DNA of 64,000 nt, from NCBI GenBank assembly GCA_005400705.1, contig GCA_005400705.1_4079.1. One strand, written 5' to 3'. This DNA comes from Escherichia coli. GTDB taxonomy: Bacteria > Pseudomonadota > Gammaproteobacteria > Enterobacterales > Enterobacteriaceae. The translations under genes and the position numbers were made by a program. This document shows positions 1 to 64,000 of this stretch, piece by piece. Below the pieces are notes generated by a model that had not been told where the DNA came from, did not search any database, and worked only from the letters and a program-made list of their open reading frames with translations. Within the stretch, counting starts at the first letter, position 1, and every line of letters begins with the position of its first letter.

Positions 1-440
1 TTGTTTTCAGTAAAAATGGCAACATAATATGCGTGGTTAATAACTTGCTTCATCCCAGCATCAATAACTTCCTGTGGAATATGATCAGTAACATCCAACC
101 AATCAAGGTTAGATGATGCAATATCTGGAGTACTGAATTTGTCAAATCTAGTTGAGCCACAAACTAGCACTCTATCATCATTTGTCAAAGCCACTGTGCT
201 AGTCTGCATATTAGAACTGAATGATTTAACATTACTAATGTTAGACTTGTACCAACCCTTATCAGCAGCACCCACCGTGAATCCGGTTCCCATTGATCCA
301 CTTGTACTTGTACCATAAGCCCACATCTCACCACTATATGTTAGTGCCATACAGTGGCTTCCATTTGCTTGGAAATCCTTTATACCAGTGGGAGCAACCA
401 CTGTATTCCCATAATCAAACATTCTAACAAAAGGTAACAT
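1..440 (-). CDS. RCC1-like repeat protein paralog (partial, C-terminus beyond left edge)
   Basis: ATG at 438-440 on minus strand encodes MLPFVRMFDYGN, identical to the four paralogs to the right; frame open to position 1. Confidence 0.6.
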   Translation of the reverse strand, partial: MLPFVRMFDYGNTVVAPTGIKDFQANGSHCMALTYSGEMWAYGTSTSGSMGTGFTVGAADKGWYKSNISNVKSFSSNMQTSTVALTNDDRVLVCGSTRFDKFSTPDIASSNLDWLDVTDHIPQEVIDAGMKQVINHAYYVAIFTEN

Positions 441-473
441 AACTAAAATCTCCATATAATAATTATAATGTAT

Positions 474-511
474 TTACAAAAAAATACCAGTACATATTTC
501 AGTACTGGTAT
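474..511 (-). terminator. Rho-independent terminator downstream of CDS 516-1688
   Basis: Inverted repeat ataccagtac/gtactggtat (484-511) followed on minus strand by a T-run (plus A-run 475-483). Confidence 0.5.
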
Positions 512-515
512 AATG

Positions 516-1688
516 TTATGGTAAAATAATAGCTTGTAACGAACTCATACCCAATGTTGGGACACTCGCCTGTGGTGCTGGTGCATTCACTTTTGGTGAT
601 GAAACCGCATAAGTCATTCCTGTACCCAAATCTGGATCAAAAACTACAGAACAATAATCCCCATTGTATATAAGTCCATTAGTATATCCTTGTGCACTTT
701 GAATGCATTTCGTGAACGTACCAATGTCAGTAGTGGCATTTATTAAGTTCCTCCCACGGTAGCCACAGGTGTATATGAAATTATCAACACCTATGTACAT
801 ACTCGCAGAACCAGAAGAACTACATAGATAAGACATATAAGCACGCATGTTTTTAGGAGCAACTGACAATGTACCAGCATAGAATTTATTATTCATACTC
901 GAAATATCACCATCACCCAAAGCACCAAAACTCCCCCAACCAGTACCATAATATCTCTTATCACTCAAGAATATAATACAGTTGTTATTACACATCTTGA
1001 CTTGATATATCAATGAAGGATCAACCCCAGGGAATGATTCAGTGTATGTTAGAACAGCCAGATCAGTACTAGCATTACATTGATGATATGTATTAGTACC
1101 AGCGGACAATATTGTACCATCAACTAATAGAATCCTCGAAGTGCCAGTACCAGCAATACAAGCAACAGCATTACCTGTATATATTTGTCTGAAAGTAAAG
1201 AAACCAACAGTCTTACTCCCCTGTCCACTCCAACCAGTATTATCAACACCACATGCCCATACTGAACCATCTTGCATGATCATCATTACACCATAGCGTT
1301 CTATCGAAATATAGACAATCTTCGTAGTATCAACTGCACTAAATCTAGAAGTTATATCAGTCCAAACCTTTACACTCACCGCCGTCGCACCGAAAGTAGG
1401 ATCTTCCCCTGCTATCATTATCCTACCATTGTTAGTCAGATACATTGTCTGACTATAACCAGTACTACAAAACTTAACACTATCAGTCTCTGGAACTTTT
1501 AACCACTCGTTGTAACGTGTTACGTTAGTGTTATTACCTAACTGATAATAGTTATTCATCCCAGATACATATAACACACCATCCTTTATTAAACTATAAG
1601 TCGCACTATAGTCACTACAGGTATAACGTGTACCCACAGGTCGCTCAACGACGTTCCCATAATCAAACATTCTAACAAAAGGTAACAT
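516..1688 (-). CDS. RCC1-like repeat (beta-propeller) protein paralog
   Basis: 390 aa ORF; N-terminus MLPFVRMFDYGN; repeated G-x-N-x-x-G-x-LG-x-G-like motifs (YVSGMNNYYQLGNN, YYGTGWGSFGALGDGD); SD upstream. Confidence 0.7.
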   Translation of the reverse strand: MLPFVRMFDYGNVVERPVGTRYTCSDYSATYSLIKDGVLYVSGMNNYYQLGNNTNVTRYNEWLKVPETDSVKFCSTGYSQTMYLTNNGRIMIAGEDPTFGATAVSVKVWTDITSRFSAVDTTKIVYISIERYGVMMIMQDGSVWACGVDNTGWSGQGSKTVGFFTFRQIYTGNAVACIAGTGTSRILLVDGTILSAGTNTYHQCNASTDLAVLTYTESFPGVDPSLIYQVKMCNNNCIIFLSDKRYYGTGWGSFGALGDGDISSMNNKFYAGTLSVAPKNMRAYMSYLCSSSGSASMYIGVDNFIYTCGYRGRNLINATTDIGTFTKCIQSAQGYTNGLIYNGDYCSVVFDPDLGTGMTYAVSSPKVNAPAPQASVPTLGMSSLQAIILP

Positions 1689-1724
1689 AATTAAATCTCC
1701 AAAATTAAAATAATTAGATAGTAT

Positions 1725-1761
1725 TTACAAAAAATACCAGTACATATTTCAGTACTGGTAT
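1725..1761 (-). terminator. Rho-independent terminator downstream of CDS 1769-2911
   Basis: Inverted repeat ataccagtac/gtactggtat with 8 nt loop, T-run on minus strand. Confidence 0.5.
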
Positions 1762-1768
1762 CGTAGCG

Positions 1769-2911
1769 TTAAAATGGCATCTTAACCTCTTTATATACTA
1801 ATATATCACCGGATAAACCAGGAAACGCAGAACCATTACCACATGCATATATAGTACTATCATTCCACACTGCTTGATGGTAATTGCCTATAGTACATTT
1901 ATAATTCGATAAATCAGTCACACCAGGTGTTAGTACATAATATACTGGTCCACTAGGTAAATTAAAATCAAATCTACCAAAGTAGTTCAAACCAGATGAA
2001 TAGGACTTGTCATTAGCAAATATTACAGTACCATCTTCTGTAAAAGAACTGTGAGAAATGTCTTTGAGATTGTTCACAACACCAGACGGTATTGATGTAT
2101 TCAACGTAAAGGACGTCAATGGTGCTGCACTTGGTGTGTTGTTCGCCGTGTAACCATAATATGCATAACCAGCTACATATACACTCGAATCTGAACAAAA
2201 TAAAAATGCACTCCTATAACCCAACCTAATACTCTCTATAGTCTTACTAAAAGTAACTTTAGTAAAGGTAGGAACTAAACCACTATATCCTACCCCACAT
2301 GTACCAAAATCATTCTTCCCAGTACTGTACAATTCGTTATTATTTGTAAGGTAAAATGACGCAGCAGCACCGCTATCTAAAGTACTGTAAACGTCTTTTA
2401 CATTACTCGCAATCAATTTAAATGCACTCAATACGGTAGCCGAACCATTGTTAGACAGCGTTGTTGAATCCGTGCCTTGTCCTATTGTATATAAATCTCC
2501 AGTACTAGTCAAAACAAATATACCATTAGTCGCCATAACAATTCTGTCATTCTTTAAATTAAATGAACTAAAAAGTGTACTTATATCAGTAAAGGTAGTA
2601 TAACGCCCACTCTGCCCTATACTCGATAAATTCCCACTCAAATAAACCTTATTATCATTACCAACAGCTACATAACAACCCCACCCAGCATATATCTGAT
2701 CAATGCCTTGTATCGGTATTTGTAACCATTCACTACCAGTTACCGAAGCAGTACTTCCAGTTCCAAGTTCACCAGAGTTATTAGCTCCGAATACATATAA
2801 ATTCCCACTATCCGATAAAACAACTGTATTACCAACTCCAGTTTTTATATCCTTGATACCATTCTTAGGAGCAACATTCCCATAATCAAACATTCTAACA
2901 AAAGGTAACAT
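1769..2911 (-). CDS. RCC1-like repeat protein paralog
   Basis: 380 aa ORF; N-terminus MLPFVRMFDYGN; motifs YVFGANNSGELGTGS, YLSGNLSSIGQSG; conserved 5' UTR tataatgaataaaggagg upstream. Confidence 0.7.
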   Translation of the reverse strand: MLPFVRMFDYGNVAPKNGIKDIKTGVGNTVVLSDSGNLYVFGANNSGELGTGSTASVTGSEWLQIPIQGIDQIYAGWGCYVAVGNDNKVYLSGNLSSIGQSGRYTTFTDISTLFSSFNLKNDRIVMATNGIFVLTSTGDLYTIGQGTDSTTLSNNGSATVLSAFKLIASNVKDVYSTLDSGAAASFYLTNNNELYSTGKNDFGTCGVGYSGLVPTFTKVTFSKTIESIRLGYRSAFLFCSDSSVYVAGYAYYGYTANNTPSAAPLTSFTLNTSIPSGVVNNLKDISHSSFTEDGTVIFANDKSYSSGLNYFGRFDFNLPSGPVYYVLTPGVTDLSNYKCTIGNYHQAVWNDSTIYACGNGSAFPGLSGDILVYKEVKMPF

Positions 2912-2944
2912 ATTTCCCTCCTTTATTCATTATACTATATTTAA

Positions 2945-2976
2945 TCAAAAAGAAAAGCCAGTACTTGAGTACTGGC
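2945..2976 (-). terminator. Rho-independent terminator downstream of CDS 2984-4111
   Basis: Hairpin gccagtact-tga-gtactggc (2957-2976) followed on minus strand by T-rich run. Confidence 0.5.
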
Positions 2977-2983
2977 ATAGTTT

Positions 2984-4111
2984 TCAAAAAGGTAAATCAA
3001 TTTGCTTAGTAATAATAGTATCTAACGGTATTGAACACAATGAGAAATTCTTTCCACCCGTATTTTCAGGATTATATCCATTCATCCATACATTATTACC
3101 TTCGTAAAATGTATTCCAGTATAAAGCCCCACTATATCGTGTATTCGAATTGAACGATGGAAAGTTGAATTCTTGGAATGATGTAAAATATGGAATGGAA
3201 CTTGAACTACTTCCCGTAAATGGGGTATACCCAGTTGCTATTAGTTTGTTTGTATCTGCATTAATTAAAAATACAACACTAGTCGAATAGTCCAACGAAT
3301 CAGGATGATATATATTACTCATATCACCTATAGTAAAACCAACATCAAAAACTTTACTATGTGCACCACTACCAGCAAAAGTAGTTCCAGTTGCATATAT
3401 TTTATTATCAGATGTTATCATTACAAAACCAGCACCAGAAACAAAACTGCATTTTATATCATAAGATATATCATCAAACAACGGAACAAATGTGGTTGCA
3501 TCACCCGATGTTGCTTTAACTTGAAAGCTGTTATTTGAACCTGAACCATATACAGTTCCATCGTTTTTAATCTTAAACAATGTATCGCCAAGGTAACCGC
3601 CAAATATATTATCCACATTAGTGTCAAGTACAGTCCACGCTGAAACATAATTTTTATGTCCTAAACCTAATGCACCACTTCGATTCCATCCTCTTCCATA
3701 AAGTGTTCCGTCTTTCATTAATATAAATGCTGTATAACCACATAACATTTTTTTAATTTGGGTAACATCTATACCAGTGAAATACACACCCCAGTCAGTA
3801 TATCCTTGTTGGAAAGTATCAGAATTCGTGAATGCATATGTTGAACCTGAACCATATATTTTATCACCTTTAATAACAACGGAAAACAATCCTAACCATA
3901 AGTCATCAACTTCAGTTGTGATTTGTTGAACTGCTCCTAACGATACAAACTGTGTACTTAAACCCGCATTATAGTTTGAATCTTCACCGTGTGCATATAC
4001 AGTGCCATCTTGCATTAGAAACATTTCAAGAGTGTAACTAACAACACTTTTCTTTATATTATTAACTTCGATTATATTCCCATAATCAAACATTCTAACA
4101 AAAGGTAACAT
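2984..4111 (-). CDS. RCC1-like repeat protein paralog
   Basis: 375 aa ORF; N-terminus MLPFVRMFDYGN; motifs YGRGWNRSGALGLGHK, YGSGSNNSFQ. Confidence 0.7.
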   Translation of the reverse strand: MLPFVRMFDYGNIIEVNNIKKSVVSYTLEMFLMQDGTVYAHGEDSNYNAGLSTQFVSLGAVQQITTEVDDLWLGLFSVVIKGDKIYGSGSTYAFTNSDTFQQGYTDWGVYFTGIDVTQIKKMLCGYTAFILMKDGTLYGRGWNRSGALGLGHKNYVSAWTVLDTNVDNIFGGYLGDTLFKIKNDGTVYGSGSNNSFQVKATSGDATTFVPLFDDISYDIKCSFVSGAGFVMITSDNKIYATGTTFAGSGAHSKVFDVGFTIGDMSNIYHPDSLDYSTSVVFLINADTNKLIATGYTPFTGSSSSSIPYFTSFQEFNFPSFNSNTRYSGALYWNTFYEGNNVWMNGYNPENTGGKNFSLCSIPLDTIITKQIDLPF

Positions 4112-4149
4112 AATTCCCTCCTTTATTCATTATACTTTATTTAATACAA

Positions 4150-4177
4150 ATAAGAATTCCTGTATCGAGTACTGGCA
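4150..4177 (-). terminator. Possible weak terminator hairpin downstream of CDS 4184-5332
   Basis: Imperfect inverted repeat gaattcc/ggcattc around AGTACT; less convincing than the other three. Confidence 0.25.
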
Positions 4178-4183
4178 TTCAAT

Positions 4184-5332
4184 TTATTGTAAAAAGGACA
4201 TATCTACTTCTGTATAACTAAGAATGTTTTGACCAGCAATTCCACCCATTACTACTATTGCATACCCACAATAATATAATTTCCCAGTGTCCGTAAGTAT
4301 AAGTGAACCAGAAGGTGTTCTTACCAAATTACACGAACTATTAAAAGAAGTATACGAAGGAGTATAGGAGTACTGATCAATATTATTACCAACACCTAAT
4401 TGACCACCCCTATTCGAACCAGATGCATAAAGTACTTCATCTGCTTTGACAATATGTGATGCCATGTTACCAACACATGCATATACACCATATACCCCTG
4501 TACTCAATAATGTAGGAGTCTTGTATTGAATATCAGTACTAGTAGATGTTCCACCTGTGCCAAATTCATTACCATATTGTGCTCCGTACTGCTTCCCACA
4601 TGCGTACAAATTATTATCGGACTTAATAAAAAATGTACTCTGATAACTTACATCAAAATCTATAACATCCGAAGAAATCATCGTTACCCCAGTAATCGAA
4701 GTTTGATTACCAGTACCCAACTGGTAGTAATAGTTAAAACCACAACCCCATAAAGTATTATCTTCTCGCAAATAAATGTTACCAACAGCCTTTTTAACAG
4801 ATGTTATAGTACTGACCTTCTTGAAGGTATTAAATGAATCAATGTTAGTACCATCTCCAAAGGAGGATATGTTCGATGCGTTATTAGCACCACAACAATA
4901 TAATGTCCCATCCTTCAGTACTAAATTTACCTTCATATCATTAAAACTGCTCATATACTCAATATCAGATACACTAATACCACCTGATGTTATCCACGTA
5001 GTACAGTCCGTCCATAACGTCTTCCTATCAGTTACCCCAGTAAATGCCTCCGTGTTACCAGTGATAAACACTTTACCAGTACCCTTTTCTTCATACAATT
5101 GACAATCACTACTGTTATCTTCCAATAAAACCCTCTGTACATTCTCTGCACAAAGAATAAATTTACTCGATGCTACACCTGTTCCAGTACCCCAATTCGT
5201 CGCAGAAGATGCATACAACTTATGTGTTAGTGTATCATGCAAATACATAGAACCACTAGAATATATTTTAAAACGCCCAGAGTTGGTAGGTGCTTCATTC
5301 CCATAATCAAACATTCTAACAAAAGGTAACAT
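4184..5332 (-). CDS. RCC1-like repeat protein paralog
   Basis: 382 aa ORF; N-terminus MLPFVRMFDYGN; motifs YASGSNRGGQLGVGNN, YACGKQYGAQYGNEFGTG. Confidence 0.7.
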   Translation of the reverse strand: MLPFVRMFDYGNEAPTNSGRFKIYSSGSMYLHDTLTHKLYASSATNWGTGTGVASSKFILCAENVQRVLLEDNSSDCQLYEEKGTGKVFITGNTEAFTGVTDRKTLWTDCTTWITSGGISVSDIEYMSSFNDMKVNLVLKDGTLYCCGANNASNISSFGDGTNIDSFNTFKKVSTITSVKKAVGNIYLREDNTLWGCGFNYYYQLGTGNQTSITGVTMISSDVIDFDVSYQSTFFIKSDNNLYACGKQYGAQYGNEFGTGGTSTSTDIQYKTPTLLSTGVYGVYACVGNMASHIVKADEVLYASGSNRGGQLGVGNNIDQYSYTPSYTSFNSSCNLVRTPSGSLILTDTGKLYYCGYAIVVMGGIAGQNILSYTEVDMSFLQ

Positions 5333-5370
5333 AATTCCCTCCTTTATTCATTATATCATATTTACCCCAT
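5333..5370 (-). promoter_or_regulatory. Conserved 5' UTR/promoter of the RCC1-like gene (tataat plus SD aaggaggg)
   Basis: Minus-strand tataatgaataaaggaggg immediately upstream of ATG; same block precedes the genes ending at 2911 and 4111. Confidence 0.4.
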
Positions 5371-5375
5371 AACCC

Positions 5376-5404
5376 TTGACATCCTTTCAGTACTGGTGTA
5401 CTAT
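5376..5404 (+). promoter_or_regulatory. Sigma70-like promoter for the plus-strand small-gene array
   Basis: TTGACA (5376-5381), 17 nt spacer containing AGTACT, TACTAT (5399-5404); ATG at 5430. Confidence 0.45.
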
Positions 5405-5429
5405 AGAAGGAATATAAGGAGAACTACAC

Positions 5430-5657
5430 ATGACAGCTACACTTAAGTACTACATTAATACTCTAAATGAACTAGAGTACGCGAAGTTTCTCGCGGATTG
5501 TTCGTGGCTAATAGAGCTAAAAACACATAACAGTACTGGATGTAACCTTATGCTGAACAGTGCACTTGATACCCTTGTAGTGAGTATTTTACACAGCAAC
5601 ATCTGCGTGGATAGCAATAAACAATTATCAAAAATCTTAGTACTGGTAGCTATATGA
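5430..5657 (+). CDS. Family A small protein
   Basis: 75 aa; KYYIN near N-terminus, hydrophobic tail ILVLVAI. Confidence 0.55.
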   Translation: MTATLKYYINTLNELEYAKFLADCSWLIELKTHNSTGCNLMLNSALDTLVVSILHSNICVDSNKQLSKILVLVAI

Positions 5658-5866
5658 ACACTATGAACATTAAACAGTACTACATCGATGCACTACCAAC
5701 AAAAGGTCTACGAGAAAGCCTACTGTATACACAAAATAATTTTATACACTACAAACGTTATCCTAAACTCCTGAACTCGTACAGGAATAATAACATAAGA
5801 AATGCTTTACAAGGGGTAGAAAGTATGCAATACTATTACATCCTTACCCTTTTAATCGAGTACTAA
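5654..5866 (+). CDS. Family A small protein
   Basis: 70 aa; IKQYYIDALP, tail ILTLLIEY; start overlaps previous stop. Confidence 0.6.
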   Translation: MNTMNIKQYYIDALPTKGLRESLLYTQNNFIHYKRYPKLLNSYRNNNIRNALQGVESMQYYYILTLLIEY

Positions 5867-5867
5867 T

Positions 5868-6053
5868 ATGTATAAAGAATTCTACTGTAGTAAGCTGCAC
5901 AAACAATACAGAGATTCATTTCCCAATGAACCTATGGACATGAATAGTCCCTTTTATAATTTTGACTTCAGACTGGAGACACGTTATGCAATAGAACATC
6001 AATTTCCTGAAACTAAGTACTTAGCTATCATGAACCTCATCTTTAAGTTCTAA
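5868..6053 (+). CDS. Family A small protein
   Basis: 61 aa; MYKEFY, tail IMNLIFKF. Confidence 0.6.
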   Translation: MYKEFYCSKLHKQYRDSFPNEPMDMNSPFYNFDFRLETRYAIEHQFPETKYLAIMNLIFKF

Positions 6054-6065
6054 AAGAGTACTATA

Positions 6066-6277
6066 TGAAAACTATGAACATTCATCAGTACTACTTAGAT
6101 ATTCTCCCTAAAGATGTGCAGAACATCCTTAAACAAGAATTCAGTACTTTAAAAAAACCTTAAAAGATCCGCACCGAATGTACTCATCCTGCACCAAATA
6201 AATGTAGTTGATAATATTCTACAAGGTGTACCAGGAACCGAGTACTTTAATATAGTAAGGCTAATTACATTACAATG
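6066..6277 (+). pseudogene. Family A member disrupted by stop/frameshift
   Basis: ATG 6066 gives MKTMNIHQYYLDILP then stop after about 32 aa; family-like C-terminus (YFNIVRLITLQ) continues in another frame to about 6277. Confidence 0.4.
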
Positions 6278-6460
6278 AATCATATAAGCTACTATTACCA
6301 AAAACTATCCGACCGAGACAAGTACAGCCACAACTCCCATGTATGGTACTACAAACGCGGTAGTATAAGGGACAAACAACATTACTTCTGTACTGCTATA
6401 AAAGAAACACTAACAACTAAGTACACGTACAGAGCAGTACTGAAACTTATTGATATGTAA
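6275..6460 (+). CDS. Family A small protein
   Basis: 61 aa; YYYQKL, tail VLKLIDM. Confidence 0.6.
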   Translation: MNHISYYYQKLSDRDKYSHNSHVWYYKRGSIRDKQHYFCTAIKETLTTKYTYRAVLKLIDM

Positions 6461-6470
6461 AGAGAATACT

Positions 6471-6656
6471 ATGAATACATTTGAGTACTATACAAATAAA
6501 CTATCTATGCCAGAAAGATCTCATCTCTATGTGTGGAGAAATGCGTATAAAAGCGGCAATAAACTTATACAAAGAAATTCCCTTACAGTGTGTACAAATT
6601 TAATTAAAGCAGAGTACCGCACATATATTGAAGTACTGAAACTAATCTCTATCTAA
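6471..6656 (+). CDS. Family A small protein
   Basis: Track ORF 6450-6656 trimmed to ATG 6471 (MNTFEYY); tail VLKLISI. Confidence 0.6.
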   Translation: MNTFEYYTNKLSMPERSHLYVWRNAYKSGNKLIQRNSLTVCTNLIKAEYRTYIEVLKLISI

Positions 6657-6664
6657 GGTACTCT

Positions 6665-6844
6665 ATGCAAGAATTCTATATCTATAAACTTCAGCACAAA
6701 GATAGATACAACTATAATAAATTCCAAAGGTACTACACAGTCGGGAACAAAAGAGATAAAAAACGATACTTTCTATCATGTACAGTAGAAGCACAAAACG
6801 AAAAGTACACGTACAGAGAAGTACTGAAACTCATCTCAATCTAA
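6665..6844 (+). CDS. Family A small protein
   Basis: 59 aa, hand-translated (below track cutoff): MQEFYIYKL...REVLKLISI. Confidence 0.55.
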   Translation: MQEFYIYKLQHKDRYNYNKFQRYYTVGNKRDKKRYFLSCTVEAQNEKYTYREVLKLISI

Positions 6845-6852
6845 GGAATAAT

Positions 6853-7032
6853 ATGCAAGAATACTATATAGAACACATAAGCATTAAAGACCGTTTCATG
6901 TACGACACCTTCGTGAAGTACTACAACCTGGCAACTAACAGTACTAAAAATATTAATCTCAATAGCTGCATTCATCACGCACTAACAAAAGATAATCCCT
7001 TCAGGGAAATCCTCGCACTAGCATCTGTATAA
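6853..7032 (+). CDS. Family A small protein
   Basis: Track ORF 6778-7032 trimmed to ATG 6853 (MQEYYIEH); tail ILALASV. Confidence 0.6.
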   Translation: MQEYYIEHISIKDRFMYDTFVKYYNLATNSTKNINLNSCIHHALTKDNPFREILALASV

Positions 7033-7042
7033 AGGAAACCAA

Positions 7043-7702
7043 ATGAAACTTAATGCACACAGCAAACAATACCTTAAGCACTTTAAGTACCTCAACAGTA
7101 TTCAAGCAGAATCTATTACATCTGCATATACGTATCACCCTAATGTACTAAAGAAACGAAATAAAAAGAAAAAATCCAGAAATGTTCTCGTATCTAAGAA
7201 CCTCAAATCGTACTTGAAGAAAAATAATATAGCTCTTGCTTTTATTAATATCTATAATACTGATTTAAAAGTATTGAGTACTAATACCAGCACAAAAGCA
7301 CTAAAGAATGCATCTATCTATATACACATGGATAATATCCCGTGCACTATAATTCTATCTTTCGGGAATGTATACTTCTTCGGGAATTGTAATAGCACCC
7401 ATGATATCAGTACTGCACAATTCCAAATCGGCGATATGTACTGCATGGGTTCAGAAAAAATACACGATAACATGCACTTCTTCCAAAAGCAACGTACTAA
7501 CGAAACTGATACAGTACTGCAATTCCTCAAAGAATTACAAAACAAAGAATTATCCGAGGAAGAAGAATTCATGTACAGTACTGTAATCGATAATCCAGAA
7601 CTCTATAAAAACGCGTACAATCTAACAAAACATGTACAGGAACTTATCAGTACTGATAAGAAATTTCATCACCTCATTACGTATATTTCAAACTATGTAT
7701 AA
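7043..7702 (+). CDS. Hypothetical protein with family C-like motif (EEEFMYSTVID)
   Basis: 219 aa ORF inside the family A array; lysine-rich N-terminal half; C-terminal half has a variant of the family C core. Confidence 0.55.
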   Translation: MKLNAHSKQYLKHFKYLNSIQAESITSAYTYHPNVLKKRNKKKKSRNVLVSKNLKSYLKKNNIALAFINIYNTDLKVLSTNTSTKALKNASIYIHMDNIPCTIILSFGNVYFFGNCNSTHDISTAQFQIGDMYCMGSEKIHDNMHFFQKQRTNETDTVLQFLKELQNKELSEEEEFMYSTVIDNPELYKNAYNLTKHVQELISTDKKFHHLITYISNYV

Positions 7703-7877
7703 AGAATACTACAAAGATAAAATCCCAATGCATCTACAACACCATATACCAAACGTTGCATTGGGTATCAAAGATCACGCAAAGATAATGTTCCAACAAT
7801 GTACTAAGTACACGCTCATATACGATGATAATCCATATATGCTGTACTACGTAGTAATGCTAACATTCAGGTACTAA
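7695..7877 (+). CDS. Family A small protein
   Basis: Track ORF trimmed to ATG 7695 (MYKEYY); tail VVMLTFRY. Confidence 0.6.
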   Translation: MYKEYYKDKIPMHLQHHIPNVALGIKDHAKIMFQQCTKYTLIYDDNPYMLYYVVMLTFRY

Positions 7878-7878
7878 T

Positions 7879-8058
7879 ATGAATACTTATAAAGAATTCT
7901 ACCTCTCGTACCTTAATTCCGATATAGTAACATCCAATACATTCAGTACTAAAATTATCTATAATGAATTAATGAAAGAATGTATTAAAGGTGCTATTAA
8001 CCCTAAAGATACGTATGACTTGTACTATGCAGTACTAACCCTTGTTTTCACGAAATAA
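7879..8058 (+). CDS. Family A small protein
   Basis: 59 aa hand-translated: MNTYKEFYLSYL...YAVLTLVFTK. Confidence 0.55.
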   Translation: MNTYKEFYLSYLNSDIVTSNTFSTKIIYNELMKECIKGAINPKDTYDLYYAVLTLVFTK

Positions 8059-8066
8059 CACATAAT

Positions 8067-8258
8067 ATGAATAACCACAAAGAATACTACATAGAGAAAC
8101 TCCCAATGTATCTCCAACACCTTGTACCAACAGAACCATTGGGTATAGAAAAAAACTACGAAAAAGACTACTTCATTCAGTGCACTAAATCCTCGATATA
8201 TATTGAAGACTATAATCGAGTACTGTATCACATCCTTTTACTAATATATAGGTACTAA
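8067..8258 (+). CDS. Family A small protein
   Basis: 63 aa; MNNHKEYYIEKLP, tail ILLLIYRY. Confidence 0.65.
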   Translation: MNNHKEYYIEKLPMYLQHLVPTEPLGIEKNYEKDYFIQCTKSSIYIEDYNRVLYHILLLIYRY

Positions 8259-8259
8259 T

Positions 8260-8442
8260 ATGCACAAAGAATACTACACACAATTTCTCCCCAGCATTTT
8301 TGAACACTACGCCAGATACAAAGTCCCTATGGATAACGATTTGGCAGTACTGGGATTCAATAACTGCATAGAACGAAGTATAGAAAATAGTAGTAGTTAT
8401 GACCAGCTATATAACACTATCCTACTTATATTCAGGTACTAA
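8260..8442 (+). CDS. Family A small protein
   Basis: 60 aa; MHKEYYTQFLP, tail ILLIFRY. Confidence 0.65.
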   Translation: MHKEYYTQFLPSIFEHYARYKVPMDNDLAVLGFNNCIERSIENSSSYDQLYNTILLIFRY

Positions 8443-8443
8443 T

Positions 8444-8629
8444 ATGCATAAAGAATACTACACACAATTTGTTAAAGGGAACTACAAACATGCCGTACCC
8501 AGAACCCCTTTAAATTCTCATGACCCAAGTACTATATTCTTGTTTAATGACGCAATACGTACAGTACTCAATACTAAAGATGAAGATGTGCAGTACGTAT
8601 TCTTACTATTACTTATATACAGACACTAA
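8444..8629 (+). CDS. Family A small protein
   Basis: Track ORF trimmed to ATG 8444 (MHKEYYTQF); tail LLLLIYRH. Confidence 0.65.
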   Translation: MHKEYYTQFVKGNYKHAVPRTPLNSHDPSTIFLFNDAIRTVLNTKDEDVQYVFLLLLIYRH

Positions 8630-8634
8630 CTAAT

Positions 8635-8844
8635 ATGAATAAAGAACATAAAGAATTCTACTCCAAATACATAAGCCCCTCAGAACAAATGTTTCTAAGG
8701 ACTACTCCACCTTTAAGTACTAATACATTTTTCGGCAGAGTATGCTACAATAATTGTATTCAAATGACTTTAAACGCAAACGAAGATGGTAACAGTACTA
8801 ACCTGTACTCAGGTATCATAGGTATACTATTCCTGTATGAATAA
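8635..8844 (+). CDS. Family A small protein
   Basis: 69 aa; MNKEHKEFY, tail IGILFLYE. Confidence 0.6.
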   Translation: MNKEHKEFYSKYISPSEQMFLRTTPPLSTNTFFGRVCYNNCIQMTLNANEDGNSTNLYSGIIGILFLYE

Positions 8845-9025
8845 TTACAAAGACTTCTATTTGAATACACTACCTACTGTACTTTCTCTAAGTGCTCAAT
8901 GTAAAATCCCGCTGGATAATGCTTACGCCAGATATAGCTATTCCATAACTGTTAATCGATGTATAGAGAATCATTGCAGTACTAACCAGTACTATAACAT
9001 AATCCTACTTATATTCAGGTACTAA
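8837..9025 (+). CDS. Family A small protein
   Basis: 62 aa; MNNYKDFY, tail IILLIFRY. Confidence 0.65.
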   Translation: MNNYKDFYLNTLPTVLSLSAQCKIPLDNAYARYSYSITVNRCIENHCSTNQYYNIILLIFRY

Positions 9026-9026
9026 T

Positions 9027-9209
9027 ATGAATAAAGAACATAAAGAATTCTATATACGAAAACTAACATTCGTCCCCGTAAGAATATATAAAGAATGCGA
9101 CCCAAGATTATACCTATGGCACTTCAATGAGTGCATAAAAGATTCTATATACCATAAGAACTATAAAGAACAATTGTGCTCAGTACTAACACTAGTACTA
9201 TCATATTAA
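9027..9209 (+). CDS. Family A small protein
   Basis: 60 aa; MNKEHKEFY, tail LTLVLSY. Confidence 0.6.
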   Translation: MNKEHKEFYIRKLTFVPVRIYKECDPRLYLWHFNECIKDSIYHKNYKEQLCSVLTLVLSY

Positions 9210-9224
9210 TTAATAGAGAATACT

Positions 9225-9416
9225 ATGTATAAAAACTTCTATATAAGTAAACTAAAAGAAAATGAACAAGTATGGATTAGATCTATAATTCCACTGGCAT
9301 TTAATAGATATGCATTTAACAGATGTACCGAGATTGCTATAGACCCTTATAATATTAAAGAGAATGTACAGTATAATCAGTACTACTATATCTTAATGCT
9401 TATATATAGAAAGTAA
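9225..9416 (+). CDS. Family A small protein
   Basis: 63 aa; MYKNFYISKL, tail ILMLIYRK. Confidence 0.6.
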   Translation: MYKNFYISKLKENEQVWIRSIIPLAFNRYAFNRCTEIAIDPYNIKENVQYNQYYYILMLIYRK

Positions 9417-9693
9417 TTAAACACAAGTAGACAGGGGAAGCTCCTAGTGAACAACCTTTATGTACAGGCGAATTGTTAAAATTCAGCCTGGACAAATGCG
9501 ATCACTAGGATTCTCCCCAGGCTAAACCCCGTAATCATAGGTAGTCATAAGTAATCATATATAAACATTTATATGAGCACCGTAGAATCACAGAATGATT
9601 ATATATGATTCAGTACTGATTAGTATAGACAAGATTGCTCAAGAATGCACGGAAATGTGTGTGAATGATTCAGTACTGATATCCCACTAAGTA

Positions 9694-9720
9694 GGCAGAG
9701 GAAGTCTGCCGTACTTTTTA
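9694..9720 (+). terminator. Terminator-like hairpin
   Basis: ggcag-aggaagt-ctgcc followed by gtacttttt. Confidence 0.4.
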
Positions 9721-9826
9721 GTTTCCAAGCTCCTTTTCCATTTTTCAAATTACATCAAATGTAATCAAAAGTAATCACGCAATGATTAGTACTGAATTAT
9801 TACTTTCACCTTAATTACAATTACCC

Positions 9827-9846
9827 TTTTACCCTTCGGGGTAAAA
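9827..9846 (+). other. Perfect 8 bp stem with UUCG tetraloop
   Basis: ttttaccc-ttcg-gggtaaaa; no T-run after it. Confidence 0.5.
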
Positions 9847-10054
9847 TTCCATTACCCCTTGAGGCTCCAGCAAAAAGTTGGTTAGTACTCCATCCTAAAT
9901 CTCGATCCTAAAAATTTTGGAGTACCTATGAAATAAAAGTTGGATCTTCGAAAGTTGAAATTTACGTTGGGACGTTTATGATTTGTGGGATATAATGATG
10001 TTTGTAGTCGGGTAGTTCTCAAGAATATCAGTACTGAATGATGAAAGAAAGCTA

Positions 10055-10082
10055 TTGACTTTATGATTCAGTACTGTATAAT
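10055..10082 (+). promoter_or_regulatory. Sigma70-like promoter with no ORF downstream
   Basis: TTGACT (10055-10060), 16 nt spacer containing CAGTACTG, TATAAT (10077-10082), then gttttacat; following 150 bp non-coding and ends in a T-run near 10190. Confidence 0.45.
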
Positions 10083-10420
10083 GTTTTACATAGAGAGATG
10101 AGTTGCCGCAAACAATTCATTCACTCTACTTCCTGTCGTGAGACAGTACAGAAAGATAGTTCCTCCTATGGGTGGTACATCTTTTAGAACCTCTTTTTTC
10201 GTAATATGAACAGTACTGATATTAACAGAATGGTGTCAGTACTGATTTTAATTTAATGCATTATGCCACCAGCACAAGCTGGTGGATTCCCTCTAACAGT
10301 ATTCAGTACTACATGATGGTCTTCATCCTCCTAGGGTAACATAGTGAGGGCTATGATGGCAGTACTGAATACTCCCTTTCAAAAGATAGATCTATGGTAT
10401 AGTACTGACGGATTTTGGGC

Positions 10421-10600
10421 GTAGTTACCCTGGATGGATTTTGGACGTAGATATGTCTAGCCCTCCAGAAGTCTGGAAGTAAAGATGGCTATCCATCTAG
10501 ACGGCTAAACGGCTAGATTTCTGGATGGCTGGATGGCTAGACGTTTGGACGGCTAAACGGCTAGATGGTTACACGTCTGGAAGTATAGACGGCTAAATCA
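10421..10600. repeat. Iteron-like cluster of short direct repeats
   Basis: gacggctaaacggctagat x2, gtctggaagta x2, ggattttggRcgtag x2, ctggatgg x3, ggctag x4 within 180 bp. Confidence 0.6.
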
Positions 10601-11220
10601 AAATTTTATTTTGTTTTTTCCAATAGTTCCCCTACCGCGTGGGGATAGTTTCCCCGCAGTATCTGGAGTTAGATTTTTCTGAATCTGGAATCATTATCTT
10701 ATAAACTGGGGGCAATGTCAACCGCCTGGACGGATATTTTTAAAAATTTTTTCAGTACTGAATTTTGGGCGTAACTATGCACCCGGTGGGCTTGAGTCTT
10801 TCTCGACTTGATGGAACTATTATACAGTACTGGAAAAATAAAGCAATACCCTGGAAGCAAAAAAGTTTTAATTAATTTGCTTGCTATCCTGGGCCGGACT
10901 ATGGTACTATATTTCAGTACTGAGAAAGTGCGTTTACCTGCTAGGGTGCGGGAGTGTATCCTTTTTTTATATCTTGAATTTTGGGCGTAATTCCGCACCC
11001 TCTGGGGTTTCCGCTTTCTCGCGTCTATGTAGTAATTATACGCTTTTTCAGGATCAAGTCAATACCTAAAAACAAAATAATTGAAAATAATTTAACGCGT
11101 TTAAACGGCCCGTAAAGCCCTGGAATGATTGGAATGGTGCAAATGTATAGCTTAGGTGTATTAATGCGTTAGAATGCGTCTGAGGCCGTTTTACGGGGTA
11201 TAGGGATGATTTGGTGGATT

Positions 11221-11310
11221 GATTCAGTACTGAATGATAGTACTACTATATAGAAAGATAGTTCCCCTGAATGGTTGCAGTACTGAATGATAGTTCCCCT
11301 ATATAGAAAG
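11221..11310. repeat. Two direct repeats of about 45 bp (cagtactgaatgatag...tatatagaaag)
   Basis: Near-identical tandem copies immediately upstream of the first PeSL-type promoter. Confidence 0.5.
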
Positions 11311-11340
11311 AAAACTATTTTAAAAGTATTTGTAGAAAGT

Positions 11341-11402
11341 ACTTGCAAACTAAGTTTAACGGCGTATAATGTTTTACATCGAGAGCGGGAACACTTCCCG
11401 CT
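11341..11402 (+). promoter_or_regulatory. PeSL-type cassette: sigma70-like promoter plus 5' stem-loop
   Basis: aAGTACTTGCAaact, TATAAT at 11365-11370, gttttacatc, hairpin agcgggaa-cac-ttcccgct (11384-11402). Confidence 0.6.
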
Positions 11403-11425
11403 ACATATTACGAGAGATTAAAACG

Positions 11426-11788
11426 ATGGCGACTCAAATCACTAAAATTATTGCTAACCTGGTTAACTTTCGCGACGAGATGAAAGATCTTCCGGCAGAA
11501 ACGGTAAAAATTCACATTTCAGCTTATCGGGAACTTATTGCAATGTTACCGCTTAAGCGTGAACAATACGCCGCGACCGTGATGCTTGATGCGATGATCC
11601 ATAAGATGATCGCCAGTGATTTAACGATGGTTTATCAGTATATGGGCGAAAATTTCGCGGTGTATAGTAAACCAGTACCAGGAATGGAAAGTACAGAAGT
11701 ATTACACGGTTTAAATTTAAAACAAGATGCATGGGATAATATGCCTCGTTTCCTGGTATGGGCTGACAGTGGCAAGATTTACGAATAA
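11426..11788 (+). CDS. Hypothetical protein
   Basis: Track ORF 11369-11788 trimmed to first ATG after the hairpin (11426, MATQITK); 120 aa. Confidence 0.65.
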   Translation: MATQITKIIANLVNFRDEMKDLPAETVKIHISAYRELIAMLPLKREQYAATVMLDAMIHKMIASDLTMVYQYMGENFAVYSKPVPGMESTEVLHGLNLKQDAWDNMPRFLVWADSGKIYE

Positions 11789-11799
11789 GTTTTAGAAAG

Positions 11800-11861
11800 T
11801 ACTTGCAAACTAAGTTTAAAAGCGTATAATGTTTTACATCAGGTGGGGAATAGTTCCCCAC
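11800..11861 (+). promoter_or_regulatory. PeSL-type cassette
   Basis: agtacTTGCAAact, TATAAT 11825-11830, hairpin gtggggaa-tag-ttccccac. Confidence 0.6.
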
Positions 11862-11881
11862 TATATAAGAGGATTAAAAAA

Positions 11882-12121
11882 ATGGCTAAATCAAAAATGT
11901 TCTTAGGTCACAAAAACAAAACTCATTGGAATGTAAGCCTTTGGATTAATAACGATGAGTCATTGTACCGGTTGGCCCAGGACTTTATTAACGATAGCAC
12001 TAATCGCAATGATGCGGCCCGTCATATGATGTTATTTTTAGAACAGACTGGACAAGATAAAACACCGGACGGATTCAAATATAGCACTACTGCGATCCGT
12101 GCGGCGATGGTTGGAATGTAA
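11882..12121 (+). CDS. Hypothetical protein
   Basis: ATG 11882 (MAKSKMF) after SD aagagga; 79 aa. Confidence 0.65.
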   Translation: MAKSKMFLGHKNKTHWNVSLWINNDESLYRLAQDFINDSTNRNDAARHMMLFLEQTGQDKTPDGFKYSTTAIRAAMVGM

Positions 12122-12134
12122 TAGAATATATTTA

Positions 12135-12170: not shown

Positions 12171-12206
12171 GTGTTTTATTCATACACAAACGATAAGGGC
12201 AACAGC

Positions 12207-12540: not shown

Positions 12541-12559
12541 ATAACCTGGAGTAATAAAA

Positions 12560-61853: not shown

Positions 61854-62371
61854 TGATTGAACCTATGACAGTACTAGCACGTACTAAATTATTATTGAGG
61901 ATTGGTGAGATATTCACTGATATTTTGTACAGTGGGATTGATATACTTGAATTAGGCATTAAGCAACCGTGGGAATTAACCAAGTTCTCTGCGTTCCATC
62001 GTTTATCCTATAAAGGGGAAACGGTTCTTGACTTGAACCCCAAAGCCAGATTCATGGACTATGCAGCTTTATATGGAACATGTGGAGGAATAACAAATGA
62101 TTTCAAAGAAATTAAAGTTCAAACAGCGTCACATGAATTTAATGATTTATTATATCCAGAATTTAAGTTAACAGAAGAATCATTCTTCCAGTACTCATTG
62201 ATTTTAAAAGATCTTAATGATTTAGAGTACTACAAAGAGTTAGTAGATATTTTTATTAATACACGACTTTCAAAAGATATTGTGATATTCTGGTATACAG
62301 AGCATGTTACGGAGGAATTGCTTACTGAATTTCTTCTAAATATGACAGCTATAAAGGAGAAGTTATGTTAG
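61853..62371 (+). CDS. Family C protein
   Basis: 172 aa; core EESFFQYSLILKD. Confidence 0.65.
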   Translation: MIEPMTVLARTKLLLRIGEIFTDILYSGIDILELGIKQPWELTKFSAFHRLSYKGETVLDLNPKARFMDYAALYGTCGGITNDFKEIKVQTASHEFNDLLYPEFKLTEESFFQYSLILKDLNDLEYYKELVDIFINTRLSKDIVIFWYTEHVTEELLTEFLLNMTAIKEKLC

Positions 62372-62838
62372 ATATTTTAGGAAACATCGACACTGCAAAT
62401 TATTTTATTCAAGATGCATTGTTTAATACAGTACAACAAGGTTTAGAAGTTCACCACAATGTTTATCAGGGTGATGGATATTTTGTTGATATTATCGAGA
62501 CACGTAAAAATACATTTAATGTTAACATTACGACGCTTGGAAGACAGAACATTGCACGAATTTTAGTAAGTAAAGATGAAATAGTACTGAGATACAGTGC
62601 TAAGTTTATGTTGACTTATAAGAAAAAAACTGATATGTTCAGTACTAATTTATTTGATGAGCCATTTGACCTTGAAGATATTGAAGCTACTTTCTTTACT
62701 CAAAGTACTATGGTAAAATACACTGATGTTCAATTTTCTGCTGATGTAATGTCAGAAACATTACAAATGATCAAGGTATTATTTTATGCATTTGAGCAAT
62801 TTAGAGAAGAAAGAAACAAGGTTAACAACCACAGATGA
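62365..62838 (+). CDS. Family C-like protein
   Basis: 157 aa; core EATFFTQSTMVKY. Confidence 0.55.
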   Translation: MLDILGNIDTANYFIQDALFNTVQQGLEVHHNVYQGDGYFVDIIETRKNTFNVNITTLGRQNIARILVSKDEIVLRYSAKFMLTYKKKTDMFSTNLFDEPFDLEDIEATFFTQSTMVKYTDVQFSADVMSETLQMIKVLFYAFEQFREERNKVNNHR

Positions 62839-63199
62839 ACTAATAGAGGCGATCACTAAGGAGTCAAAATACCATAAAGGTATTCGTCTATACTTTATAG
62901 ATACTGGTTCGATGGAAGGTACATACATTTATGGTTCACAATCGTTGTCTTATGATGCAATGCCAAATAAACATGTTAAAATCTTTTTAGGTTCAAGTAA
63001 TAAAACTTTCTTGACAATTAATGATAGCAGTGTTATTATGAATTCGTTGGGTCATGATAAGGTGGAAATTGATCTAAACACGCTGGAGGATATTGATTTT
63101 TTTCAATACGAGTGTTTAGGTGTTGACTTACATGGCATTAGTAGCGATATGATAAAATCATTAATCAAATATTTCGAAGGTGTTCATAAATGTATCTAA
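62786..63199 (+). CDS. Family C-like protein (start uncertain)
   Basis: 137 aa; core DIDFFQYECLGVD; 52 nt overlap with previous ORF. Confidence 0.5.
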   Translation: MHLSNLEKKETRLTTTDELIEAITKESKYHKGIRLYFIDTGSMEGTYIYGSQSLSYDAMPNKHVKIFLGSSNKTFLTINDSSVIMNSLGHDKVEIDLNTLEDIDFFQYECLGVDLHGISSDMIKSLIKYFEGVHKCI

Positions 63200-63687
63200 C
63201 TAAATCAATGAAAAATTCATTTGATAAAATCAAGAGTTGTCTTGATGGAGAAAATATTACAAGTGTTACACAAACTGCTGACCAAATTCAAAGCAGTTCA
63301 AGTGATTGCACTGTTATTTTTGGTTTACATAGTCTGCGTTTATCAATAGTAAATAATATTGACAACACTGCTATTGTAATCACACCATGCAATATTCAAA
63401 ATGAGAATGGTGTATATCTTCATCACATGGGAACAGTATTTCACATTTTCAATTCAAACGAAAACATTGTTAAGGAATACAATACTCTTAATATTGATTC
63501 AGGTGAATTATTTCAAATGAGTACTTTGTACTCATGTAATTTTACAGATACTTCATGTATTTTGCCATTTTTCTTGGAAATTATTAAGAAAATGGAAAAT
63601 TTAAAACGTGAATACAATAAAGAAATGGTTCCTGAAGCTATATTAAATATTACTAATGCTATAGAGAAGTATAATGCAGTGACTTAA
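63190..63687 (+). CDS. Family C protein
   Basis: 165 aa; core GELFQMSTLYS. Confidence 0.65.
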   Translation: MYLTKSMKNSFDKIKSCLDGENITSVTQTADQIQSSSSDCTVIFGLHSLRLSIVNNIDNTAIVITPCNIQNENGVYLHHMGTVFHIFNSNENIVKEYNTLNIDSGELFQMSTLYSCNFTDTSCILPFFLEIIKKMENLKREYNKEMVPEAILNITNAIEKYNAVT

Positions 63688-63729
63688 TAAAAACGCACAT
63701 GGAGTGCATTAGAAGATCAAGGATAGATC

Positions 63730-64000
63730 ATGGAGATTAAAACTGTTGAAAATGGGAAAATTGATGACATTTTAGAGTTGGACGCATTCAAAGTTCATGA
63801 TATAATGTTTAATGTGAAGGACATTATTCAATGTCTATTTTTGTGTAGCAAGACAATGCATGATTTTTTTCACAACCCAAATACTAACGTTTTTATACTA
63901 ACAATCAGTACTGAAAACTCGTTTATCATGGGTATGCCTATGAGTACAAATGAACAATATATTGATTGTGTTATTCGTAATAACGATAGTATTACGCCAC
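63730..64000 (+). CDS. Hypothetical protein (partial, continues beyond right edge)
   Basis: ATG 63730 (MEIKTVENGKIDD...) open to end of window, hand-translated with no stop. Confidence 0.5.
   Translation, partial: MEIKTVENGKIDDILELDAFKVHDIMFNVKDIIQCLFLCSKTMHDFFHNPNTNVFILTISTENSFIMGMPMSTNEQYIDCVIRNNDSITP

Follow-up and report, generated by a model that had tools for sequence, protein, structure and literature searches.

Jumbo phages of the Rak2/121Q-like group are already known to specialists to carry a block of small genes, about 65 kb in length, around long terminal repeats, and this block is known to have grown partly by tandem duplication. Similar layouts occur in the pre-early region of phage T5 and the host-takeover module of SPO1, where small early genes with strong host-type promoters lie in a long direct repeat and are oriented inward. 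At the ends of poxvirus genomes and in the multigene families of African swine fever virus (ASFV), duplicated lineage-specific families lie beside terminal repeats and away from core genes. Here we describe a 64,000-nucleotide stretch of DNA (the window) from an assembly deposited as Escherichia coli (GenBank GCA_005400705.1, contig GCA_005400705.1_4079.1). We consider it likely that the window is a segment of the genome of an Asteriusvirus (121Q/PBECO4-like) E. coli jumbo phage, read through the point at which the genome ends meet, and that it makes up an early host-takeover and accessory region.

The setting is ordinary for the 121Q/PBECO4 group: the window is a new mosaic variant of what is already known in these phages as their terminal, early and accessory region, not a new type of element. 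Several of its sequence features have not been described before. Its value lies in the anatomy that can now be attached to a known region, which comprises the limits of the terminal repeat, about 40 promoter cassettes that mostly carry a hairpin and Chi sites that are confined to the repeat. To these are added a promoter-associated, genome-wide palindrome that appears to be under selection and two expanded protein families (at least 41 and approximately 31–34 members) with confident structural models. These features bear on how a 350-kb linear DNA survives entry into the cell, on the wiring of an early transcription programme and on the ‘dark’ third of jumbo-phage genes.

The comparison with phage PA5oct, of the Rak2-like group, is the most instructive. 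PA5oct has a 39-kb direct terminal repeat (DTR) with 105 small, uncharacterized genes that are transcribed almost exclusively from one strand and at high levels 5 min after infection, its growth requires the host RNA polymerase and its promoters are of the TTGAC/TATAATA type (PMC7318152). The DTR of the window is similarly long, with small one-strand genes and host-type promoters, but belongs to a phage of E. coli rather than Pseudomonas and is approximately 20 kb long with 49 genes; expression has been measured in PA5oct only. The likeness to T5 and SPO1 is one of layout, no sequence relationship having been found, and the window repeat is followed by at least 34 kb of operons of paralogous genes, which T5 and SPO1 lack. 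The terminal families of poxviruses and ASFV differ in that they lie beside inverted rather than direct repeats and share no homology with those of the window, in which no sign of fast copy-number change was seen. In phage CBB, short hypothetical open reading frames (ORFs) are grouped in a block with RpoD-like promoters, which were proposed to mark it as an early host-takeover region (PMC5259590).

Relatives and gene content

By megablast, the window is collinear with the Asteriusvirus phages 121Q, PBECO4, G17, fEgEco12 and phAPEC6 at 89–96% nucleotide identity, and both nucleotide similarity and gene order place it in this genus. Positions 39001–64000 match 121Q with 98% coverage and 95.5% identity, positions 1–25000 match fEgEco12 with 71% coverage and 94.9% identity, and positions 20001–45000 match G17 and phAPEC6 with 74–75% coverage and 89–90% identity. 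Because these phages have genomes of 348–386 kb, the placement bears out the proposal of the initial annotation, made from the sequence alone, that the window belongs to a far larger genome in which the accessory compartment is very extensive. The counterparts in 121Q are approximately genes 248–409, nearly all of which are annotated as ‘hypothetical’, and those in fEgEco12 are g588–g670 plus g01–g140. In fEgEco12, the first 50 kb contain 140 genes and a 50-kb section from the middle of the genome contains 30, mostly encoding tail, baseplate and portal proteins.

Asteriusvirus records share with the window an array of RCC1-like genes, the limits of the terminal repeat, a tandem array of about 30 genes and a block of genes for proteins of 100–227 amino acids, and they label nearly everything in these parts ‘hypothetical’. 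The window nevertheless differs from any single record. Between 9.7 and 45 kb it is a mosaic, in which the best coverage by one record is 49–75% and some segments have only 72–80% identity; for the repeat region, any close Asteriusvirus relative covers at most 49% in one collinear place. Genes of the repeat at 11818–12121, 17508–17789, 20011–20216 and 26723–26917 match rV5-like and phAPEC8-like coliphage genes with 80–87% nucleotide identity. The phages that share them are unrelated and have genomes of approximately 135–150 kb, including records labelled as Campylobacter or Acinetobacter phages, and the sequence similarity indicates that single genes of the repeat have recently been exchanged horizontally. 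Together, the mosaic relationships and the genes held in common with unrelated coliphages fit an accessory, horizontally exchanged gene pool.

We defined a set of 164 genes from a six-frame listing of ORFs followed by curation. Five RCC1-like genes are on the minus strand (1–5332) and the other 159 form an unbroken plus-strand series from 5430 to 64000, with products that have a median length of 90 amino acids and a maximum of 227; none of the 159 reaches 250 amino acids. Thus, the first impression of a minus strand occupied by RCC1-like genes only, with every other gene small and on the plus strand, holds for the curated set. Each of 168 candidate products was scanned individually against Pfam-A and PHROGs, and no polymerase, terminase, capsid, portal or tail family was found among them; neither by profile nor by fold does any product match a core phage module (DNA polymerase, terminase, major capsid, portal or tail). 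ARAGORN found no transfer RNA (tRNA) genes in the window and there is no Rfam match at the gathering threshold. The lack of recognizable core and tRNA genes, reported earlier by eye, thereby withstands a profile search of all products, which assigned none of them to a core structural or replication family.

The only matches above the curated cut-off in the per-protein Pfam scan are to RCC1_2, DUF7249 and a ParE-like domain; those to DksA/TraR, GNAT and, in the four complete RCC1-like genes, RCC1 come from an aggregate Pfam scan that provides E-values only. Among the 94 products of 29.7–64 kb, no Pfam match is better than E ≈ 0.008, and the PHROG families matched by the small genes are all of unknown function. 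The ORFs of the window are real genes under purifying selection, as the ratio of non-synonymous to synonymous polymorphism (pN/pS), calculated against the orthologues in 121Q and fEgEco12, is 0.15–0.42 in every sub-region (0.18 for the RCC1-like genes, 0.42 for 5.4–9.4 kb, 0.15 for 9.7–29.7 kb, 0.39 for 29.7–37.4 kb and 0.23 for 37.4–64 kb). Three extra minus-strand ORFs (10699–10998, 18910–19185 and 26936–27319) were rejected as genes because they lack a signal of purifying selection. The counterpart of the first of these is annotated in fEgEco12, in one repeat copy only.

The initial annotation also described the coding as near-complete. This is accurate for 29.7–64 kb, where 97–98% of the sequence is coding, and fails for 9.7–29.7 kb, where the coding density is 69% and the median intergenic gap is 68 nucleotides, and for an ORF-poor stretch at 9417–11340. 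Two observations go beyond that annotation: the window crosses the genome ends and includes a direct terminal repeat, and more than half of its genes belong to four tandemly duplicated families.

Genome ends and the direct terminal repeat

The DTR of fEgEco12 is 20,993 bp in length, with termini determined by PhageTerm and confirmed with 10 restriction enzymes (PMC13070987), and 121Q packages approximately 8% terminal redundancy (PMC5646251). Aligning both ends of the fEgEco12 record to the window by blastn places its position 1 at window position 9690 and its last base at 29682, and both alignments run on without a break through these points from the other side. The linear record of G17, which has the opposite orientation, starts at window position 29682 and ends at 9690. 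As the ends of two independent linear records, one of them with experimental termini, fall on the same two positions, 9690–29682 (19,993 bp) corresponds to one collapsed copy of a DTR of approximately 20 kb, with 49 small plus-strand genes. The limits of the repeat are thereby exact in window coordinates. Positions 1–9689 are the right end of the unique sequence and positions 29683–64000 are the first 34 kb of the left arm. A repeat that is joined to both unique flanks is as expected of a concatemer or of an assembly that merges the two repeat copies, and the repeat is not directly visible because the window includes only one copy. The record of 121Q has the same order as the window. The Sharanji record (350,079 bp, with a reported DTR of 20,668 bp) starts at approximately window position 44.8 kb, away from the fEgEco12 and G17 termini; its origin is probably arbitrary.

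Four intrinsic signals switch at the limits of the repeat: GC content, coding density and gene spacing, strict promoters and Chi sites. The GC content is 0.36–0.40 inside the repeat compared with 0.29–0.35 in the flanks, with steps at approximately 10 and 30 kb. The terminus at 9690 is within the ORF-poor leader (9417–11340), in which sequence, repeats and composition all stand out. Repeats of 10 bp of the GTAATCA type lie on either side of the terminus (9531–9559 and 9745–9777), an array of 8-bp units of the form RGAYGGCT occupies approximately 10435–10595, palindromes of the form ATGATTCAGTACTGA are numerous and an inverted pair of Chi sites is found at 10266–10285. Both the change of sign in GC skew and the minimum of cumulative skew fall in this leader. 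The features of the leader may be packaging signals or signals for replication, such as an origin. The plus-strand genes at 5430–9416 have negative GC skew, unlike every other plus-strand gene of the window.

Promoter cassettes and hairpins

Strict promoters of the form TTGMMW-N16-TATAAT number 26 in the window compared with 0.57 expected; all lie within 10055–28797 and 25 of the 26 are on the plus strand. In a looser scan of the plus strand, the repeat has 42 sites and the remaining 44 kb have 15. By match to the consensus, these are host sigma-70-type promoters placed before small genes, as in an early region. They form about 40 near-consensus cassettes on the plus strand (10055–28797), mostly in intergenic gaps. 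Each cassette, of approximately 90 nucleotides, consists of an A-rich segment, AGTAC-TTGCAA or TTGACA, a 16-nucleotide spacer, TATAAT and GTTTTACATC. In approximately 24 cassettes this is followed by a hairpin of 7–10 bp (GGGGAGAA/TTCTCCCC), a ribosome-binding site and the start codon. All 20 hairpins tested folded, with energies of −10 to −16 kcal mol−1 and z-scores of −1.1 to −4.7, and the stems vary by paired changes that can be read from individual sequences (for example, GCGGGAA/TTCCCGC compared with GGGAGAA/TTCTCCC). These results rest on individual folds, as a MAFFT alignment of the 24 cassettes was out of register and its RNAalifold consensus is meaningless.

Alignment also revealed five or six double-promoter units (12790–13070, 19340–19530, 20735–20950, 22725–22915, 25727–25915 and 28172–28385). 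These units begin with a second type of promoter, in which the −35 box is located inside a stem-loop (AAAGGGATTGACTCCGGTCAGTCCCTTT) that is followed by a conserved GCCCACMGGGTGC box (AGCCCACMGGGTGCATAARTGTATC), and a standard cassette occurs approximately 117 nucleotides downstream. The short interval is a possible source of a small RNA or of a regulatory leader; the double-promoter units have no Rfam match. Beyond the repeat, strong promoter-like sites are few (29723, 36263, 40239 and 52490 in 29.7–64 kb), and the 4-nucleotide overlaps between genes in this part point to long operons.

Chi sites within the repeat

Exact Chi octamers (GCTGGTGG) number 12 in the window compared with 0.51 expected, and all are inside the repeat (10266–28321). 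Ten are on the plus strand (10278, 16756, 20480, 20990, 21941, 22841, 24922, 26514, 28092 and 28314) and two are on the minus strand (10266 and 16694); the latter form inverted pairs with plus-strand sites (10266/10278 and 16694/16756). Chi is recognized only by RecBCD that approaches from its 3′ side. RecBCD that enters at the right end would therefore meet ten octamers in the active orientation, and RecBCD that enters at the left end would meet two. The first of these two, which is on the minus strand and is paired with an inverted plus-strand site, is 576 bp inward of the terminus. The repeat of fEgEco12 has the same 12 sites, with none in the 29 kb that follow and 2 per 50 kb in the structural region, and the analogous region of the Klebsiella phage K64-1 has 10 in 30 kb, 9 of them on the coding strand.

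We infer that these sites serve in the protection of linear ends and in recombination between the repeat copies. RecBCD that enters at the free ends would be tamed by Chi, and the resulting loading of RecA would favour recombination between the copies, forming circles or concatemers. Phage P1 provides a precedent: its Chi sites cluster at the packaged ends, and RecBCD- and RecA-dependent circularization through terminal repeats has been proposed (bioRxiv 10.1101/2021.07.08.451572). P1 and Chi-rich lambdoid phages resemble the window phage in that Chi is concentrated at terminally repeated linear ends (PMC12315714). P1 differs in being temperate and in packaging by headful from a pac site, whereas the window phage has fixed ends and is virulent.

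Expanded protein families

Clustering by blastp and by iterative searches with hidden Markov models (HMMs) resolved four families in the window, such that about 90 of the 164 genes are products of duplication. The two smaller ones are the RCC1-like family on the minus strand (1–5332; 5 members) and a family of proteins of approximately 60 amino acids on the plus strand (5868–9416; 10 members; phrog_11711). The two larger families are both on the plus strand. One, which we call the four-helix family (phrog_4148), has products of 64–94 amino acids with the motif LGTNYQE and comprises about 30 overlapping genes at 29751–37306 and two more at 49364–49751, as defined by blastp, HMM searches and alignment. 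HMM clustering gave 34 members, or 31 after the removal of three outliers in the DTR, and PHROG 4148 is matched by 29 + 2 of the products. The other is an acidic ‘EExxFQxS’ superfamily of products of 100–227 amino acids, with at least 41 genes at 35687–63687 arranged in operons with 4-nucleotide overlaps. This count consists of 36 genes from clustering and five accepted on the motif itself; when the 26 unassigned products of 35–64 kb were compared with the family profiles by single-sequence hhalign, weak local matches occurred at the motif only, and all products other than these five were kept outside the family.

Divergence among the paralogues is high, with a mean column identity of 12–25%, and the F–Q pair of the EExxFQxS motif is invariant across the 36 clustered paralogues. 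Family products are acidic and soluble, with a median isoelectric point of 4.8. Kinship between the two large families was considered and rejected (hhalign probability, 0.1%). AlphaFold models built from the paralogue alignments are confident and compact for both. The model of the four-helix family has a pLDDT (predicted local distance difference test) score of 94 and only generic helical fold matches, and that of the EExxFQxS family has no fold match in the PDB. The EExxFQxS fold is kept in phages of other genera, including RaK2, GAP32 and phages of Yersinia and Serratia. The four-helix profile retrieves 98 proteins, all named members of which are from records of Asteriusvirus-type phages of E. 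coli or Salmonella or from E. coli assemblies. Many of these homologues were deposited as ‘Escherichia coli’, on contigs of approximately 343–360 kb; contigs of this size point to whole Asteriusvirus genomes in bacterial assemblies, present by contamination or in a carrier state.

A proposed early programme and its alternatives

After injection, the host sigma-70 RNA polymerase would fire from the approximately 40 near-consensus promoters of the repeat, itself carried in two copies by each genome, with one or two small genes behind most promoters. The hairpin at the 5′ end of the transcript, found at approximately 24 promoters, probably stabilizes the mRNA or marks it for regulation. Transcription would then run on in the same direction into the long operons of the two expanded families, which would have grown through tandem duplication, such that 9.7–64 kb is transcribed inward from the left end by the host polymerase. 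This part of the genome would thus be an early host-takeover and accessory compartment and not a replication or virion module. Its early timing and role are inferred by analogy. The timing of the PA5oct repeat, the promoters of CBB and a gap in the virion proteome of phAPEC6 lead us to read 9.7–64 kb as early and accessory; the proteome table of phAPEC6 virions contains no product numbered between gp347 and gp549 (PMC7247149), a range that corresponds to the plus-strand genes of the window as judged from megablast coordinates.

Several considerations weigh against this interpretation. Searches of the literature found no transcript, protein or phenotype data for any Asteriusvirus, and the early timing is drawn from a promoter consensus and from a distant relative. 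The termini of the window phage are placed by homology, with a single copy of the repeat within the window. Promoter-like sites are rare at 30–64 kb, so the left arm might be expressed in the middle rather than the early phase of infection, and none of the roughly 90 family members has a functional homologue. As regards Chi, the orientation of the sites is strongly asymmetric (10 to 2), the positive GC skew of the repeat slightly favours a G-rich octamer on the plus strand, and Chi might be irrelevant if the phage blocks RecBCD by other means.

We suggest, with low confidence, that the most likely role of the expanded families is the diversified binding of proteins of the host or of rival phages. 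A sharper version, which would refine the early-takeover interpretation and which we regard as possible but on balance unlikely, holds that the families are a diversified arsenal for counter-defence or superinfection exclusion with a different target for each paralogue, instead of a general role in host takeover, in which case the arrays would be conditionally dispensable and fast-evolving. The number and divergence of the paralogues are in line with such an arsenal, as are a pN/pS value of 0.39 in the four-helix array that exceeds the 0.15 of the DTR genes, the acidic and soluble nature of the products, the confinement of the families to one phage clade and the mosaic nature of the region among close relatives. 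The neighbourhood is also suggestive, with a ParE-like toxin domain, a kinase-like protein and a gene that is annotated as ‘spackle’ in fEgEco12. Against it, no known anti-defence protein was matched in Pfam or PHROGs (the defence library PADLOC was not scanned), 121Q, fEgEco12 and the window have comparable numbers of copies, and 39–64 kb is well conserved among 121Q, PBECO4 and the window (98% coverage and 94–95.5% identity), unlike a hotspot of an arms race.

We consider it improbable that the products of the small plus-strand genes are components of the virion, for instance inner-body proteins or the ‘hairs’ of capsid and tail, in a structural compartment that escapes recognition by profiles. 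The virions of 121Q and phAPEC6 do contain an inner body and many unassigned fibres (PMC7247149; PMC5646251), the DTR of PA5oct encodes three structural proteins (PMC7318152) and RCC1-like proteins occur in phAPEC6 virions. However, the gap in the phAPEC6 proteome covers the genes in question, the promoters are of the host sigma-70 rather than a late type, no T4-type late box (TATAAATA) is found anywhere in the window and the products are small, soluble and highly diverse.

An equally slight chance attaches to the arrays being mostly neutral ‘stuffer’ that fills an enlarged capsid, as in a ratchet model, with ORFs of little function. Hua et al. put forward tandem duplication as one way in which such genomes grow, pointing to the array of 121Q (PMC5646251), and no function is detectable for any member of the families. 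Neutral filler is nonetheless difficult to reconcile with purifying selection in every block, with an F–Q pair that is invariant in 36 paralogues and confident compact folds predicted for both families, with conservation of the EExxFQxS fold in RaK2, GAP32, Yersinia and Serratia phages, and with tightly packed and translationally coupled genes.

That the window is a plasmid, a bacterial island or a fragment of a eukaryotic giant virus, as could be suspected from RCC1 repeats, which are best known from eukaryotes, and from the many homologues labelled ‘Escherichia coli’, is already refuted by its collinearity at 89–96% identity with cultured and imaged E. coli phages, by the phage-genome size (about 350 kb) of the contigs that bear those homologues and by promoters, ribosome-binding sites and Chi of the enterobacterial type.

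A palindrome associated with promoters

No hexamers are more over-represented in the window than CAGTAC and AGTACT. AGTACT occurs 278 times compared with 19 expected; its extended form is tCAGTACTGa, and its long palindromic form CAGTACTG (probe form, ATGATTCAGTACTGAAT) occurs 71 times compared with 0.85 expected, an excess of approximately 80-fold. Its density is approximately 7–8 per kb at 5.4–29.7 kb and 3.5 per kb at 44–64 kb, and it is absent from 30300–35040 and from 38000–44000. Many promoter cassettes carry two copies, one directly adjoining the −35 box and the other immediately upstream of the −10 box. Inside genes there are 189 copies, which occur in all three reading frames; this points to selection on the nucleic acid rather than on peptides, and a peptide-level cause was rejected on the same grounds.

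The signal extends beyond the window. AGTACT is enriched approximately sixfold in the structural region of fEgEco12, and K64-1, a phage of Klebsiella and of a different genus, is denser still, with 190 copies of AGTACT and 82 of CAGTACTG in 30 kb and the same promoter layout. When compared with hexamers of the same composition, AGTACT is better conserved in each of three relatives (0.86 versus 0.75, 0.86 versus 0.65 and 0.93 versus 0.80). A literature search turned up no mention of AGTACT or CAGTACTG in phages. The binding site of SlmA (GTGAGTACTCAC) was considered as an explanation for AGTACT and rejected because the sequences around the core disagree: the core is preceded by C instead of G, and the GT/AC ends are missing.

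As a tentative proposal, to which we give somewhat less than an even chance, CAGTACTG serves as a functional DNA signal throughout the clade of Rak2-like jumbo phages, a site at which a dedicated protein of the phage or host marks, compacts or protects the phage genome or switches its transcription. A dimeric DNA-binding protein or a modification enzyme would be the natural candidate reader. If this is true, the palindrome, the Chi-armoured repeats and the two families with unmatched folds would together make the genome end an undescribed control region rather than ‘hypothetical’ filler.

The RCC1-like array

The minus-strand array consists of one gene that is cut by the left edge of the window (1–455; RCC1_2, 31.6 bits compared with a cut-off of 22) and four complete genes (516–1688, 1769–2911, 2984–4111 and 4184–5332) with predicted products of 375–390 amino acids made of β-propeller repeats. 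RCC1_2 (PF13540) is found in all five and RCC1 (PF00415) in four of the five, with E-values down to 3 × 10−12, which places them in the repeat family; all five also match PHROG 4219, ‘regulator of chromosome condensation’ (E = 1 × 10−106). The RCC1 label denotes the repeat family only and implies no role in chromosome condensation.

Each of the four intervals between the genes (456–515, 1689–1768, 2912–2983 and 4112–4183) has, on the strand of the genes, a terminator-like hairpin with CCAGTACTG in its stem before the next RCC1-like gene. In the divergent interval (5333–5429) the word CCAGTACTG is present without a clear hairpin. All five intervals have a TATAAT box 10–15 nucleotides before the ribosome-binding site and no −35 box, a sequence arrangement that may represent a distinct promoter type, possibly late.

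Eight RCC1-like proteins were detected in phAPEC6 virions by mass spectrometry, with 1–5 peptides each (PMC7247149). By analogy, the minus-strand array may be virion-associated rather than non-structural, a possible assignment as virion components that the initial annotation did not make, and the genes are probably late. The virion evidence is weak because the phAPEC6 list also holds obvious non-structural proteins.

Individual genes of the right end and the repeat

Between the RCC1-like array and the leader, the right end of the unique genome contains 16 small plus-strand genes (5430–9416; median product length, 65 amino acids), with a divergent promoter-like site in front of them at 5376–5404.

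Inside the repeat, all on the plus strand, a handful of genes can be named. A DUF7249 gene at 11843–12121 (Pfam, 44.4 bits; cut-off, 27) has 81–87% nucleotide identity with rV5-like and phAPEC8-like coliphages. Genes for a DksA/TraR C4 zinc-finger protein (21091–21348; Pfam E = 3.7 × 10−9) and a GNAT acetyltransferase (21413–21769; E = 4.1 × 10−9) were placed on their ORFs by means of the fEgEco12 annotation (g030 and g031) and coordinate mapping. A gene with a ParE-like toxin domain (24299–24553; PF24732, 40.4 bits; cut-off, 24.4) is overlapped by 4 nucleotides by the downstream gene (24550–24825). The latter has no Pfam match and no upstream partner was seen; as no adjacent recognizable antitoxin was found, we do not file the ParE-like gene as a toxin–antitoxin system. 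The analogous region of K64-1 encodes a YafQ-like toxin, a YeeU-like antitoxin and a kinase. The 213-amino-acid product of 25101–25742 has a weak match to protein kinases (Pkinase, E = 0.0026) that is below the Pfam threshold (17.6 bits; cut-off, 31.7), and its counterparts are annotated as kinases in fEgEco12, Turkey3 and K64-1.

For three genes of the repeat, the start of the longest ORF (11369, 16855 and 26951) overlaps the TATAAT of the gene’s own predicted promoter, and g01 of fEgEco12 is annotated in the same manner. The true starts of these genes are probably downstream, past the hairpin and the ribosome-binding site.

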